DNA of 64,000 nt. It comes from Aestuariivirga sp. (GTDB lineage: Bacteria > Pseudomonadota > Alphaproteobacteria > Rhizobiales > Aestuariivirgaceae). Numbering within the stretch: the first letter of the stretch is position 1; each line of letters starts with the position of its first letter. Location of the stretch: the NCBI GenBank assembly GCA_043766895.1, contig JAYUHQ010000062.1:792-64791 (forward strand), in the 5' to 3' direction. A program made the translations under genes and the position numbers. This document shows positions 1-5,142 of the stretch, piece after piece. A model generated the notes under the pieces. That model was not told the origin of the DNA, searched no databases, and saw only the letters and a program-made list of their open reading frames with translations.

Positions 1-971
1 GCGTTTTTATCTTCAACCAAATCCCACTTGCTCAACACCAACACAATGGCGCGGCCTTCGCGGGCGATCAGGTCACACAGCGTTAAATCCTGCTTCTCGA
101 TTGAGAAGGAAGCATCCACCAACACCACAACAACTTCTGCAAATTTTACGGCGCGCAACGCGTCAGTGACTGAAAGTTTTTCCAGCTTTTCCTTCACTTT
201 GCCTTTGCGTCTGATACCCGCTGTATCCCATAACTTAATCTCGCGGCCCTGCCATTCCCAATCATTGGAAATGGCATCGCGCGTGATGCCAGCTTCAGGG
301 CCTGTGAGCATACGGTCTTCACCCAAAAGCGTGTTGACCAAGGTTGATTTGCCGGCATTGGGTTGGCCAATTATGGCAAGCCGCAAGGGCCGCAGCGGCT
401 TTTCAGGGCCTTCATAATCAGGATCAAAACGTTCTTCGATTTCTTCTTCTTCAACAATAGGGTTGATCTTCAGATCAGCCACAACCAACGGCTTCACAAT
501 GCCATAAATGTGTTCCAAGCCTTCGCCATGTTCGCCTGAAATGGCAAAGGGTTCACCAAAGCCCAAAGAGAATGCCTCAGGCACAGTTTGTTGAATAAGT
601 TTGGTTTCAGCCTTATTGGCCAAGACTGTCACAGGCTTGCCAATTTTGCGAATTTTCTCGGCAAACATTTTATCAACTGGGGTTACACCCGCACGCGCAT
701 CAATCACAAAAAACACATGGTCTGACAAGCGCGCTGCTTCAGAGGCTTGCTCGCTCATCCGCGCCTCTAAGCTGCCCTTTTTTGCTTCATCAAAACCAGC
801 CGTATCGAACACATTAAAACTAATGTCAGCAAGCTGGGCCACGCCCTCGCGCCTGTCACGCGTAACGCCGGGTTGATCATCGACAAGGGCAATCTTTTGC
901 CCAATCAAGCGATTGAACAAGGTTGATTTTCCAACGTTTGGGCGCCCAAGAATGGCGACGGTGACTGTCAT
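1..971 (-). CDS. der: Ribosome biogenesis GTPase Der (EngA), 5' part; runs off the left edge
   Basis: Not in the ORF track; translated by hand from ATG at 971: MTVTVAILGRPNVGKSTLFNRLIGQKIALVDDQPGVTRDRREG. A second G-domain follows (LAIIGQPNAGKSTLVN...GITRD). The ATG overlaps the upstream stop (ATGA). Confidence 0.97.
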   Translation of the reverse strand, partial: MTVTVAILGRPNVGKSTLFNRLIGQKIALVDDQPGVTRDRREGVAQLADISFNVFDTAGFDEAKKGSLEARMSEQASEAARLSDHVFFVIDARAGVTPVDKMFAEKIRKIGKPVTVLANKAETKLIQQTVPEAFSLGFGEPFAISGEHGEGLEHIYGIVKPLVVADLKINPIVEEEEIEERFDPDYEGPEKPLRPLRLAIIGQPNAGKSTLVNTLLGEDRMLTGPEAGITRDAISNDWEWQGREIKLWDTAGIRRKGKVKEKLEKLSVTDALRAVKFAEVVVVLVDASFSIEKQDLTLCDLIAREGRAIVLVLSKWDLVEDKN

Positions 972-1543
972 TGCGCAGGCGGCGTCGGTGGCGGCGGAGC
1001 TGGAACCGCAGGAACTGCTGGCACAGCGGGCGCCGCCGCATCAGCGGGCACGGCGGGCTTTGCCACAACGACCTTCTTTTTCTTCTTCTTGATAATCACT
1101 GGCTTTTTAACACCAAGCGGCTTGGCATCGGCCTTTCCGGCAACAGGCTTTTTAGCCATGGCTTGCTTGACGGGCACCGGTGCTGCCACGGATGGCGGTG
1201 GCAACGGATCTGGCGGCAAAGCTTCGGGGCACAAATCAACATTCGGATCACAAGGCGCATCGCCTGCCGATTGTGCGGGCATTTTTAAGGGTGCTGTTCC
1301 TTTTGGCGCAGTGCCTTGTGGCACCATGGGCTTTGATGCAACACCATTGTCGGGCATTTGCGGTTGGCCTGTCACAATCGGATCACGCGCAGTTTGCTGG
1401 TTTGGCGGCAAAATATCTTCGCGTGCACCGGGCAAAACTGTATCATTTTGCTGGCCTGTAACTTTTTTCAAAGTTGTGCAGCCAGAAAGAACCGCAACAG
1501 CGAGAACGGCAATCACTATTTTTTTCATCATCTTGGTGTTCAC
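968..1543 (-). CDS. Pro/Ala/Lys-rich lipoprotein of unknown function, in the slot usually occupied by the BamB-like PQQ-repeat lipoprotein
   Basis: Basic N-terminus, hydrophobic stretch and lipobox LSG-C. Low-complexity body with KKKKKK and PAVPAVPAVP. 4-bp overlaps with both neighbours. Confidence 0.75.
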   Translation of the reverse strand: MNTKMMKKIVIAVLAVAVLSGCTTLKKVTGQQNDTVLPGAREDILPPNQQTARDPIVTGQPQMPDNGVASKPMVPQGTAPKGTAPLKMPAQSAGDAPCDPNVDLCPEALPPDPLPPPSVAAPVPVKQAMAKKPVAGKADAKPLGVKKPVIIKKKKKKVVVAKPAVPADAAAPAVPAVPAVPAPPPPTPPAQ

Positions 1544-2205
1544 TTTTTCAAGTTGGGAGAAATTAACTGAAGCATCATTTCAGCACGTTGCTTCATGGCA
1601 CCTGACGATTCTTTGTCTGCCACAACGGCTTTGAAATAACGATCAGCCATGGAATAATCTTTCACACGCCATGCTGAAAGCCCGAAAATTTCACGGGCCT
1701 CGTTGTGCCAAAGCGCATCGTCTTTATCAAAGCGGCCCAATCGTGGCAGCAGTTGATCTGGCGATTGGGTGTCGGCCAGCAAATAGCCCGCGCGAATGCG
1801 GGCCAAATCTGCCAGCGCCGGATCAGACTTTGCATCAGCAGAAAACGCATCATAAGCGGCCACCGCTTTTTCAACGTCGCCCTTGGCACCAAGAATGCCA
1901 GCCTGTTGAATTTGGGCAAGTTGGGTATAGCCAGAATGATGCACCACAGCCAAAGCGGCCAGCGCATCTTCACTTTTGCCATTCGTAGCCTTTTTCAACG
2001 CGTCAAAATAAATGACGCTGGCGTCTTCGGCCTGCTTTAACTGATAATATTGAAAGCCTTGCCAAGCGGCAACGGCACCCACAAACAGCAAAGCCACGGT
2101 GCCTGCATATTTGCCATATTTGTCCCACAGTTTTTTATATTCGTCTTGGCGAACTTCATCGTCCACCTCGCGGAATATGGCGTCATCACTCTCGCTCAAA
2201 ATCAA
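1540..2205 (-). CDS. YfgM-like TPR membrane protein (ancillary SecYEG subunit)
   Basis: IFREVDDEVRQD...LWDKYG motif, one TM helix, then Ala-rich TPR-like helices; lies upstream of der. Confidence 0.88.
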   Translation of the reverse strand: MILSESDDAIFREVDDEVRQDEYKKLWDKYGKYAGTVALLFVGAVAAWQGFQYYQLKQAEDASVIYFDALKKATNGKSEDALAALAVVHHSGYTQLAQIQQAGILGAKGDVEKAVAAYDAFSADAKSDPALADLARIRAGYLLADTQSPDQLLPRLGRFDKDDALWHNEAREIFGLSAWRVKDYSMADRYFKAVVADKESSGAMKQRAEMMLQLISPNLKK

Positions 2206-2257: not shown

Positions 2258-3619
2258 TCACACAACCGAAAATGCCCCGATCAGCCCTGCGTCGCTGCGC
2301 TCAGCAATAAGGCTTTGAATTGCCCACAGGCCAACATTGTCGCAAACCAAGGCCAATTTCATTTTTCCAAGGGCTGGAACCACCACCGTATCGCGCCAAG
2401 GGGCTGCCCCCAACAGCAAACCGCCCTGCTCTATGGCCTGCCAAACATGGCCATGAAGATGCAACGGCTGGGGAAAGCTGGTTTGATTTTCAACATCCAG
2501 AACAACCGTTTCGCCGTTCTTGGCGTCAAACAACACTGGCCCGCCAATGCCTGCAATGCCATTGATGGCCCAAGCCAACCCGTGTTCCAACAGGCCGCGC
2601 ATTTCAAGATCTTTGTCGCCCAGTTTTGCAGATTTCAAGCCGCCCTTGGCCCCACCTTGAAGAACAATCGCAATATGCCGCGCCGTGGTCAAATCTCCCA
2701 ATACCGCTAAGGGGTTGGCCACCAACTTAAAATCAGCAGGCAGAGCGGCGGTGGGGCCTTTTCCACTAGGCACCAGAAAGGCCAGTTCAACCACATCTTC
2801 GGGCATATCGAGTTCAAGCGTTATTTCGTTTCGCAAACTTTTCACCAAAATATCGGCCCGTTGGCCTGGTGCCAAAACCAAGGCTTCGCGGCCCACCATT
2901 GCGGGCATGATGGGCTGGCCATCCCACGCCAAAATTTCTGCTTCGGCATCTTTCATCGAAAGCTGAATGGTGCGGGCATTGGCAACATTGAGAACCCGCA
3001 AACGCAAAGGCTTGCCCGCATCAACTTTAATCTTAGCGTGAAACACACCATTGGCCGTGAACCAATTGCCCATGCGCCCTTCGGCAATCGCCATATCTAA
3101 TTTTTCGAAGCCTTCAATGATGTGGCTTTTTTCATCAAGCAACCAATCATCAACAAGAAGTGGCACATCTTGCAATGGCGGCAGAACAACTTCCTCAACA
3201 ATCAACATGCCATAAAGCCCACGATCGCGCTGTTCAGAAGCGTGCAGCAACGGCCCAAACCAGAATGTGCCTGCATCTGGCGGGGTGAATGAAAAGCTTT
3301 GTGTGGTTTTTGCCAGAACATTGATGGTCATAGCCTTGACATCGCCACGCACGCCAAACCAGTGCAGCCACAACTCTTTGTCGAGCATGTTCACAATCTG
3401 GCCTTCAAACAGTTGGCCCTGTTTGGCGCGCAAGATGGCAACGGGGTGATTTTTTTCAAACCGCCAAACCGGGGTTTTGTTTGCGCCTTTAACCAAGGCC
3501 ATCGTTGCATTTTCAGCGGTGAGAGTGATGCCGCGGTGCGTTTGGGCAACGGCAATGCGCGGCGCCAAAACAACACCAGCCACCGCAGCCACAAACTTGC
3601 GCCTTGTTATGCCCATCAC
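2258..3619 (-). CDS. Tat-exported multicopper oxidase-fold protein with degenerate copper-binding motifs
   Basis: Twin-arginine signal TRRKFV. Cupredoxin motifs are recognisable but altered: HWFG, WFGPL, QPLHLHGH, WAIQSLIAER. Confidence 0.85.
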   Translation of the reverse strand: MMGITRRKFVAAVAGVVLAPRIAVAQTHRGITLTAENATMALVKGANKTPVWRFEKNHPVAILRAKQGQLFEGQIVNMLDKELWLHWFGVRGDVKAMTINVLAKTTQSFSFTPPDAGTFWFGPLLHASEQRDRGLYGMLIVEEVVLPPLQDVPLLVDDWLLDEKSHIIEGFEKLDMAIAEGRMGNWFTANGVFHAKIKVDAGKPLRLRVLNVANARTIQLSMKDAEAEILAWDGQPIMPAMVGREALVLAPGQRADILVKSLRNEITLELDMPEDVVELAFLVPSGKGPTAALPADFKLVANPLAVLGDLTTARHIAIVLQGGAKGGLKSAKLGDKDLEMRGLLEHGLAWAINGIAGIGGPVLFDAKNGETVVLDVENQTSFPQPLHLHGHVWQAIEQGGLLLGAAPWRDTVVVPALGKMKLALVCDNVGLWAIQSLIAERSDAGLIGAFSVV

Positions 3620-3707
3620 ATCACCTCTGATTCACCAGAGCATAGTGTGATGTGTGTCTAAATTGAGAATGCTCGATTCAGAACCGTCTGCAACAAACGG
3701 CGCGCAT

Positions 3708-3729
3708 AAAAAAAGGGCCGAAGCCCTTT
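3708..3729 (-). terminator. Rho-independent terminator downstream of the DUF2853 gene
   Basis: The - strand reads AAAGGGC-TTCG-GCCCTTT-TTTT immediately after the stop at 3733. Confidence 0.8.
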
Positions 3730-3732
3730 CCC

Positions 3733-4074
3733 TTATTTGTAAACGGCTTCTTTGCCGAAATGTTTGGTCAACATATAATAAACCACCGCACGATACTTAT
3801 TGCGGTTGGATTTGCCATAGGTGTCCATAACCTTGGCCAAGGCTTCATCAAGCTTTGGCCCGTTGGCCAAACCCAACTTCTTGATCAGGAAGTTTTGTTT
3901 CACGGTTTCAAGCTCAGATTCTTGTGTGGCCGAAACAGTTGCAGCATCAGCATTATAAATCGAAGGACCACAGCCGATTACAACCTTGGTCAACAAATCA
4001 ATATCAGCAGTCATGCCGCATTTATCTTTCAAATCGCCAGCATACTTGGCGATCAATTCGTCTCTTTTGCTCAT
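3733..4074 (-). CDS. DUF2853 family protein
   Basis: MSKRDELIAKY...GCGPSIYNADAATV...NKYRAVVYYML pattern typical of this small alphaproteobacterial family. Confidence 0.85.
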   Translation of the reverse strand: MSKRDELIAKYAGDLKDKCGMTADIDLLTKVVIGCGPSIYNADAATVSATQESELETVKQNFLIKKLGLANGPKLDEALAKVMDTYGKSNRNKYRAVVYYMLTKHFGKEAVYK

Positions 4075-4156: not shown

Positions 4157-4975
4157 TTAATCTTTCACGTCATACGTGTTTTCTGGCAGCGGAAATGCCC
4201 TTGTCCGCACATCATCGGCATAAGATGCAATGGCTTTTTCAATGGCCTTGCCCACTTCGCCAAATTCTTTCACAAACTTTGGCACGCGCGGTGAAAGGCC
4301 CAACATATCTTCCATCACCAAAATCTGGCCATCACATGAGGCCGATGCGCCAATGCCGATTGTGGGAATATCAATCATTTTGGTAATTTTTGCGGCCAAG
4401 GGTTCAGCTACTGCCTCAAGCACAACAGCAAATGCGCCAGCTTCACTCACGGCTACAGCGTCGGCTTCGATGGCGGCCCATTGCGCGCGTTCACGGCCTT
4501 GGGTTTTAAAACCTCCAAACACGTTGATGGATTGTGGGGTCAACCCGATATGCGCCATGACGGGAATGCCCCTGTCTGACAAAAACTTGATCGTTTCAGC
4601 CATGCGCAAGCCACCCTCAATTTTGATGGCGCCACATTCAGTTTCTTTCATCACCTTAGCGGCATTGCGAAACGCTTGCGCCGGGCTTTCTTCATAAGAA
4701 CCAAATGGCATATCAACCACCACCAAGGCGTGCTTTGCCCCGCGTGTGACAGCACGGCCATGCATAATCATCAATTCAAGGGGCACAGGCAATGTGGTTT
4801 CAAACCCGTGCATCACCATGCCAAGGCTGTCGCCGACCAATAGAAAGTCGACATATTTATCAGCAATAGCAGCTGTGTGGGCGTGATAAGATGTAAGCGA
4901 AACAATGGGCGCCATGTTTTTGCGGGCGCGAATATCAGGTGCCGTAAGGCGTTTTTGAACGGTGTGTTGTGACAT
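4157..4975 (-). CDS. panB: 3-methyl-2-oxobutanoate hydroxymethyltransferase
   Basis: [35 protein letters not shown] and DGQILV motifs. Start moved to ATG 4975. Confidence 0.97.
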
Positions 4976-5142
4976 GCGAGCACTTATAGCCGGGAATGGG
5001 CCACGGCTCAAATCATTGTCGCACCACCGTTAATGGCGGCGACTAAGTGCTGATTATTCGTATACTCAAAAAACCATCCATGTTAGATAAGTGCTTCGTT
5101 TGTCGGGCGGCGACGGGAAATTCACTTCAATCGGAGGCATTT

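Follow-up and report, generated by a model that had tools for sequence, protein, structure and literature searches.

The window analyzed here is a 64,000-nucleotide stretch of an Aestuariivirga sp. genome (contig JAYUHQ010000062.1, positions 792 to 64,791), and it encodes a pseudo-multicopper oxidase at 2258..3619: a protein that has the three cupredoxin domains of a multicopper oxidase (MCO) and lacks most of the copper ligands. This is a lineage-specific pseudo-MCO, which arose from an active oxidase at the same locus, independently of the copper-less MCO homolog FtsP (also termed SufI), and which has been kept by selection. Its function is accessory, since many close relatives have deleted the gene, and selection has nonetheless long kept it intact in a single bacterial family of freshwater and soil. 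Because the MCO fold, the export signal, and purifying selection have all been retained, the protein functions without four-copper redox chemistry; the loss of ligands suggests that it does not carry four coppers and is catalytically dead.

Replacement of the Copper Ligands

The gene, its export signal, and the remnants of its copper motifs are as follows.

2258..3619, minus strand: pseudo-MCO open reading frame (ORF), three cupredoxin domains (ORF list, Pfam PF07732/PF00394/PF07731, and AlphaFold2 model)
3545..3619, minus strand: twin-arginine translocation (Tat) signal peptide MMGITRRKFVAAVAGVVLAPRIAVA, then Q (translation); likely cut after AVA
3356..3364, minus strand: copper motif 1 remnant HWF; CueO H101 and H103 correspond to H86 and F88
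3335..3352, minus strand: shortened loop VRGDVK after motif 1 (alignment with intact and intermediate positional orthologs)
3248..3256, minus strand: copper motif 2 remnant GPL; CueO H141 and H143 correspond to G122 and L124, and both type-3 His are gone
2453..2470, minus strand: copper motif 3 remnant QPLHLH; CueO H443, H446, and H448 correspond to Q384, H387, and H389
2282..2317, minus strand: copper motif 4 remnant QSLIAERSDAGL; CueO H499, C500, H501, H505, and M510 correspond to Q435, S436, L437, R441, and L446

The ligand columns were defined on Escherichia coli CueO, which was taken together with FtsP from the K-12 record and aligned with the pseudo-MCO. Three of the 12 columns are kept (H86, H387, and H389) and nine are replaced, which leaves three of the ten His, with Ser in place of the Cys and Leu in place of the axial Met. 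The type-1 site is replaced throughout, as Q384, S436, R441, and L446 occupy the positions of CueO H443, C500, H505, and M510, and in the trinuclear cluster five of the eight His have given way to F88, G122, L124, Q435, and L437. Motif 4 now reads Q435-S436-L437-I-A-E-R441-S-D-A-G-L446, the HCH having become QSL; an acidic residue beside the old type-1 His, E440 (CueO E506), is retained. On the basis of the CueO structure, for whose ligand assignment a literature search gave no confirmation, we take H86 and H387 to be type-2 ligands, H389 a type-3 ligand, and F88 the site of a former type-3 ligand. The losses extend beyond the ligands themselves: a six-residue deletion after motif 1 takes out the "MDGT" segment, which holds the Asp-Gly (DGX) motif that competent MCOs have beside the trinuclear cluster. 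The intact and intermediate orthologs of the alignment retain this segment, and only the strongly degenerate genera have lost it; what the DGX motif does in MCOs has been described (PMC2661564).

A preliminary description of this DNA had read the four motifs as HWF, GPL, QPLHLH, and QSLIAER...L, had counted three of ten His with the type-1 Cys gone, and had reported an intact 453-aa ORF with a twin-arginine signal. The translation reads exactly so, the CueO alignment yields the same count, and the ORF list, the translation, and the conserved arginine pair bear out the rest.

Export Signal, Domains, and Fold

The product is 453 aa from a GTG start, or 452 aa if the ATG at 3616 is used; the ATG appears to be the likelier start, since GAGG lies 7 nt before it. 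The N-terminus comprises a T-R-R-K-F-V motif, a hydrophobic stretch, and an AVA-Q cleavage site, with conservation of the two arginines (R6/R7) at 90% or more across 57 relatives. These features, along with a TatC match (100.5 bits) in the same genome (contig C295, 9262-9561), point to export of the pseudo-MCO by the Tat machinery. This sole TatC match of the genome runs into the contig end (a 128-aa open frame), and the tat operon is incompletely assembled.

All three Pfam cupredoxin models match above their cut-offs: Cu-oxidase_3 (1.4e-14, 54.7 bits), Cu-oxidase (1.3e-06, 29.0 bits), and Cu-oxidase_2 (2.2e-16, 60.3 bits). An AlphaFold2 model built from 57 relatives is confident, with a predicted local distance difference test score (pLDDT) of 90.7 and a predicted template modeling score (pTM) of 0.88; its best Foldseek match in the PDB is 6vow (E 5.7e-38, TM 0.78/0.86), followed by CueO and a Thermus laccase; the top 50 PDB matches listed are all three-domain MCOs. 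By sequence domains and by fold alike, the protein thus belongs to the MCO superfamily. The solved structures closest in sequence are 4F7K (E 5e-48), 6VOW (3e-39), and 6VOX (1e-36), while the FtsP structure 2UXT matches only at 2e-10 and over part of the protein. The family-specific NCBIfam models fall far short of their cut-offs, with 82.3 bits against 525 for CueO (NF008205) and 46.8 bits against 581 for FtsP (NF008135), the latter confined to residues 129-265. Automatic pipelines give such proteins the label of an "FtsP/CotA-like multicopper oxidase."

Graded Ligand Loss at a Conserved Locus

In what follows, L denotes a fetched locus, g a genus, and f a family, with f1 being the family of the window. 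The nearest named records are two metagenome-assembled genomes, an Aestuariivirga and a Hyphomicrobiales, in both of which the protein is 81% identical and the gene order the same. Beyond such relatives the protein is narrowly distributed. Among 401 genomes sampled across the class, a match at E <= 1e-95 occurs only in the genome of the window itself, and among 201 sampled across the order, a family-level score occurs only in its genus; the GTDB family itself yields matches at E <= 1e-40 in 108 of 151 genomes. The best match of each genus in the family sits between panB and a yfgM-like TPR_21 gene, with der further downstream. Across this locus, PanB is 77-97% identical and the MCO 35-85%.

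The copper ligands at this single locus form a graded series. In the patterns below, all from the panB-MCO-TPR_21-der locus, each group of letters represents one copper motif, in CueO order.

g420 and g430: HH HH HHH HCHHM, fully intact
g419: HH HH QHH ASSHL
g425: HH HL HHH SSTHA
g423: HH HL QHH ASAHC
g428: HH H/R-T HHH ASxHL
g431: HY RG QHH ESARL
g421 and g427: HH GI/GV QHH HSTR(M/L)
g426: HY SV QHH QSTRL
Genus of the window: HF GL QHH QSLRL or HF AM QHH HSLRL

The intact positional orthologs of the two f1 genera (g420, L043; g430, L045, L046, and L057) and of a second family of the same order, f4, in which the gene order is the same (L077-L079 and L081), share with the window protein the locus, a similar length, and a single gene-tree clade (99% support). 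The intact f1 copies, as far as their N-termini were recovered, have a twin-arginine signal like the window protein. The intact orthologs differ in having all 12 ligands and the Asp-Gly loop, and they are only 35-38% identical to it. The direction of change is from intact to degenerate, since the f4 MCOs at the same locus are intact, and so is every best match that was fetched for another 13 families of the order (20 loci including f4).

Phylogeny and Independence From FtsP

In a maximum-likelihood tree for which the twelve ligand columns had been masked, the syntenic f1 genes all fall into one clade (99% support); the intact forms branch off at its base, and a single nested group (86%) takes in the degenerate ones. 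Within the degenerate group, the position of CueO H499 is occupied by His in some deep branches and by Ala, Ser, or Gln in others. As its state varied among deep branches, erosion of the remaining ligands ran in parallel after a shared replacement of Cys by Ser.

The preliminary description had inferred a derivation independent of FtsP, and the trees agree: both of them join FtsP to CueO at 100% support, and constraining FtsP to group with the window's clade makes the fit 54.6 log-likelihood units worse (approximately unbiased [AU] test, p-AU 0.0005). Both this constraint and the next one use groups that were chosen with the tree already in view. Orthology with FtsP is excluded by the NCBIfam model score, the tree, and the AU test taken together.

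Ligand loss is not confined to this lineage. Among the 114 full-length 50%-identity cluster representatives nearest the query, 40 lack at least one ligand, and most of the ligand-poor representatives outside the window's clade belong to a second clade (e.g., P0148), with patterns such as HY HL QHH RSSHL and HH RM QHH GSxRL. A single origin of all ligand-poor small MCOs is excluded, as a constraint joining the second clade to that of the window is rejected (p-AU 4.7e-5); the second clade also occurs in a different gene context. One of its members, at L096 6001..7428, lies in unrelated surroundings (hflKC, GGDEF/EAL, and MCP genes). The replacements are convergent: FtsP, the window's clade, and most members of the second clade have Gln for the type-1 His and Ser for the Cys, and the second type-1 His has become Arg in all 120 close homologs of the window protein and in 10 of the 24 second-clade members. 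Recent horizontal acquisition is unlikely, given that the tree of syntenic copies broadly follows that of the flanking genes and that the locus is fixed.

Conservation and Selection

A database search returned 600 significant homologs, of which the best 120, of the same length and 47-85% identical, were used for column counts. G122, Q384, H387, H389, and R441 are present in all 120, S436 in 119, Q435 in 118, L437 in 117, and F88 in 110, while the H86 column holds His in 110 and Gln in 10. The pattern of ligand replacement is far beyond chance, since the same residues recur in 110-120 of 120 homologs at this level of divergence. The residues that distinguish the clade (at least 95% within it and rare in intact relatives) are G92, M97, T98, G122, R131, P153, L270, D275, L344, A349, G359, G360, Q384, W393, Q435, S436, L437, A439, R441, and D443. 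Many of these lie at or beside the former copper sites (R441, D443, A439, W393, G122, and M97/T98), which suggests a repacking of the emptied sites.

Pairwise ratios of nonsynonymous to synonymous substitution (dN/dS, Nei-Gojobori) are 0.07-0.12 within the clade (0.104 for the window and L011), compared with 0.15-0.21 for the intact positional orthologs and 0.03-0.11 for the neighboring TPR_21 gene; over all pairs tested, the range is 0.07-0.24. No stop codons occur in more than 100 matches, and 46 columns are invariant across 57 sequences down to 35% identity. At equal PanB divergence, pairs of intact and pairs of degenerate MCOs have diverged about equally, and the MCO has therefore always been fast-evolving, with ligand loss bringing no relaxation of selection.

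Conservation of the substitutions in relatives, which the preliminary description had proposed as a check, is thus borne out, the replacements being fixed in 110-120 of 120 homologs. It had also allowed that close orthologs with intact ligands, combined with dN/dS near 1, would indicate simple decay. Intact positional orthologs do exist, but they are more distant, and the dN/dS of 0.07-0.12 is far from neutral; simple decay is excluded by these ratios and by the absence of stop codons.

Repeated Gene Loss and a Second, Intact Oxidase

Of the ∼66 genomes sampled from the window's genus, ∼49 have the MCO gene and at least 16 give no MCO match. In the 11 of these MCO-less genomes whose locus was fetched, panB lies 0-520 bp from TPR_21, and no MCO remnant was found there by tblastn. 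On a tree of the flanking genes from 57 sampled loci, well-supported branches force at least seven changes to or from the "absent" state, and the four nearest relatives of the pair formed by the window and L011 are all without the MCO gene.

The genome of the window encodes a second MCO, with all ligands intact, on contig C234 (L003 1483..2847, minus strand). This 454-aa protein has a Tat signal, adjoins secA, and carries the motifs HWH, HSH, HPMHVH, and HCHHLYH...M, and it could carry the oxidase function in this genome. Intact paralogs of this type occur in 59 of the 66 genomes sampled from the genus, as well as in g426, g427, and g419; none was found in the listed genomes of g430 and g420, where the syntenic MCO is itself intact. 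Redundancy provided by the intact paralog may thus have come first, with the syntenic oxidase losing its activity afterward, a scenario that would loosely fit the paralog distribution, few independent lineages standing behind the contrast. A split or heteromeric oxidase, in which a neighbor supplies the missing ligands, can be set aside, since no MCO gene adjoins this one and a three-domain MCO forms its cluster within one chain.

Possible Functions of the Pseudo-Oxidase

The pathway that we envisage would begin in an ancestor within one Hyphomicrobiales family (probably Aestuariivirgaceae) that had a genuine three-domain periplasmic MCO between panB and yfgM-like/der. The type-1 copper site would have been lost first, through the replacement of Cys by Ser, followed stepwise by most of the trinuclear cluster ligands and the Asp-Gly loop. 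The hydrophobic residues F88, L124, and L437, together with the R441/D443 pair, now stand at the ligand places and may fill the empty sites. The end product would be a non-catalytic binding or scaffold protein, FtsP-like in principle and separately evolved. We consider a non-redox binding or scaffold role in the periplasm, including variants of it that are left unspecified, to be the likeliest option and reasonably probable, its mechanism being conjectural.

Three observations weigh against this account. Most members show very strong conservation of H86, H387, and H389, such that a residual metal site is possible; the association between the intact paralog and ligand loss is confounded by phylogeny and fails for g423, g425, and g431; and, as the frequent clean deletions show, many relatives can do without the function.

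The first of these observations is the foundation for a single-metal protein, in which the three His, located where domains 1 and 3 meet, would make up a mononuclear site for Cu or Zn and the protein would act as a metal binder, a sensor, or a small-molecule enzyme. Among homologs at >=47% identity, none of the 120 lacks H387 or H389, and 110 have H86; moreover, these are the last ligands to vanish along the graded series, and E440, beside the old type-1 His, is kept with them. The site has nonetheless been breached at the same locus in five sampled genomes, where H387 is replaced by Tyr (L098 and L110), Ala (L111), Cys (L101), or Asn (L038) in full-length ORFs with a Tat signal; in L101, H86 has also become Gln and H389 Thr, and the corresponding residues in two further proteins, P0122 and P0123, are QAH and QAD. 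Identity between the two genes with Tyr is only 59% (dN 0.36, dS saturated), and the protein has therefore persisted long past the loss of H387. Phe, Leu, and Leu now occupy the adjacent ligand positions and should fill the cavity. FtsP, which retains two of the cluster His, still binds no metal (PMC2661564). An obligatory three-His metal site thus seems unlikely, although most members could still bind a metal, and we regard the single-metal explanation as doubtful. Where the preliminary description had left the choice between a non-catalytic and a single-metal protein, its account of a ligand-poor, intact, Tat-targeted, and conserved protein stands, and its single-metal option is weakened by the losses of H387.

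A functional analog of FtsP, recruited to the septum or the peptidoglycan machinery and stabilizing it under stress in these Alphaproteobacteria, which are taken to lack FtsP, appears less probable again. FtsP is needed only under stress, and the gene studied here is likewise accessory and often lost. The two proteins share their make-up, a three-domain MCO fold that is exported by Tat and devoid of copper sites (PMC2661564), and no terminator-like hairpin separates the pseudo-MCO gene from the envelope-related yfgM-like gene. Against this, the protein is not an FtsP ortholog by model score, tree, or AU test; the gene order was inherited from intact oxidases and is silent on its present role; and the clade-specific residues, which lie mostly at the old copper sites, would offer no obvious new surface.

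A functionless relic in ongoing decay toward a pseudogene might account for the progressive ligand loss and for the seven or more independent deletions or state changes among the 57 sampled loci, but it is highly improbable in light of the dN/dS of 0.07-0.24 in every pair tested, the uninterrupted reading frames, the retained Tat signal, the 46 invariant columns, and a rate of evolution that equals that of the intact orthologs.

Neighboring Genes and Transcription

The genes and signals around the pseudo-MCO gene in the window are as follows.

3..971, minus strand: der
968..1543, minus strand: lipoprotein gene, 191 aa, Pro/Ala/Lys-rich, no propeller
1540..2205, minus strand: YfgM-like TPR_21 gene (Pfam PF09976, 2.4e-17), 52 bp downstream of the MCO gene
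3706..3729, minus strand: intrinsic terminator of the DUF2853 gene, predicted from consensus; stem AAAGGGC-TTCG-GCCCTTT, then a T-run
3733..4074, minus strand: DUF2853 gene between panB and the MCO gene (Pfam PF11015, 2.4e-44)
4157..5011, minus strand: panB, the conserved upstream anchor, which adjoins the MCO gene in nearly all family loci that extend far enough

The panB assignment is matched by Pfam Pantoate_transf hits in L007 and L008. The DUF2853 gene is an insertion found only in the window's lineage (L010, L011, L005, and L006), and, given the predicted terminator that follows it, the MCO gene would need its own promoter within 3620..3705. The 52 bp between the MCO gene and TPR_21 contain no terminator-like hairpin, and co-transcription with the yfgM-like gene is possible in the window's genome. 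In other loci (L007, L044, L048, and L049), genes have been inserted between the two; those in L007, a 2.9-Mb ENA contig, are GST, Rieske, and MarR genes. In the same locus (L007 10394..11778), der is called as two overlapping genes (267 and 194 aa), which may represent a frameshift or an assembly error.

The 52-bp gap to a yfgM-lipoprotein-der group on the same strand, on which the preliminary description had based an envelope role, is as it had stated, but the conclusion does not follow from it. The panB-MCO-TPR_21-der order is ancestral and common to the fully intact MCOs (L043, L045, L046, L057, L077-L079, and L081). Since it was inherited from active oxidases, is interrupted in some genomes, and survives excision of the MCO gene in 11, the gene order is no evidence for an envelope role, and a functional link to yfgM-like/der on the basis of synteny was dismissed as uninformative.

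In E. coli, the slot between yfgM and der is that of bamB. A search of the whole genome of the window (94.5% complete) for PF13360 (PQQ_2/BamB-type) gave no match. The gap between TPR_21 and der is ∼1.3 kb in other genera of the family, which leaves room for BamB, and 0.3-0.6 kb in the window's genus.

Significance

Copper-free MCO homologs are already known, as FtsP in bacteria and MCORP in insects, and one more is no surprise. What is unusual is that active ancestor-like forms, intermediates, and a dead end product are all found at one conserved locus in related genomes, that purifying selection on the dead forms is as strong as on the active ones, and that the same kinds of ligand replacement recur across independent lineages. 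The system could show how a metallo-enzyme fold re-stabilizes after loss of its metal, and it could reveal roles for copper-less MCO scaffolds outside the Gammaproteobacteria. The boldest form of this idea, in which a single locus offers a natural time series from enzyme to pseudo-enzyme, running from fully intact MCOs through forms without just the type-1 copper site to nearly ligand-free ones, that ends in a new periplasmic role, whether as an FtsP-like envelope or division scaffold or as a mononuclear site made from the type-2 remnant, is speculative, and we put it forward only tentatively. The results also carry a warning for annotation, in that labeling as "FtsP/CotA-like multicopper oxidase" would lead to such proteins being miscounted as laccases in metagenome surveys.

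Comparison With Known Systems

Our literature searches found no papers on this pseudo-MCO family. Its nearest counterpart in kind is FtsP/SufI (PDB 2UXT), in which two of the 12 ligands survive and no metal is bound, which is regarded as a scaffold, and which localizes to the septal ring and suppresses division defects (PMC2661564). FtsP, from E. coli and other Gammaproteobacteria, and the pseudo-MCO are alike as Tat substrates (by prediction for the pseudo-MCO) of the three-cupredoxin MCO fold that have lost nearly all ligands, and both have Gln in place of the type-1 His and Ser in place of the Cys. They differ in ancestry, as FtsP branches with CueO whereas the pseudo-MCO lies within a family-specific clade of small MCOs. 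They also differ in what remains: FtsP keeps the equivalents of CueO H141 and H446, and the pseudo-MCO keeps H86, H387, and H389; the Gly residues of the Asp-Gly loop are retained in FtsP, and the loop is deleted in the pseudo-MCO.

In sequence and fold, the closest solved proteins are instead the small bacterial three-domain laccases (the metagenomic 4F7K, 6VOX, and 6VOW, the last from Pseudomonas thermotolerans), whose length and domain order are the same; the framework motifs PPDAGTFW, DDW, and GRxGNW are common to the intact positional orthologs. In the alignments, these laccases show intact HWH and HxxHxH motifs, and the two that align through motif 4 show its His, in contrast to the three of 12 ligands and the missing Asp-Gly loop of the pseudo-MCO.

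[quoted passage not shown] The insect multicopper oxidase-related protein MCORP is likewise reported to be an MCO-fold protein from which many copper-coordinating residues are absent, and to be conserved and biologically needed (PMC4203857). Both groups differ from the pseudo-MCO described here in being eukaryotic, of unrelated lineages, and set in other domain contexts, and they are comparable to it only as MCO pseudo-enzymes.

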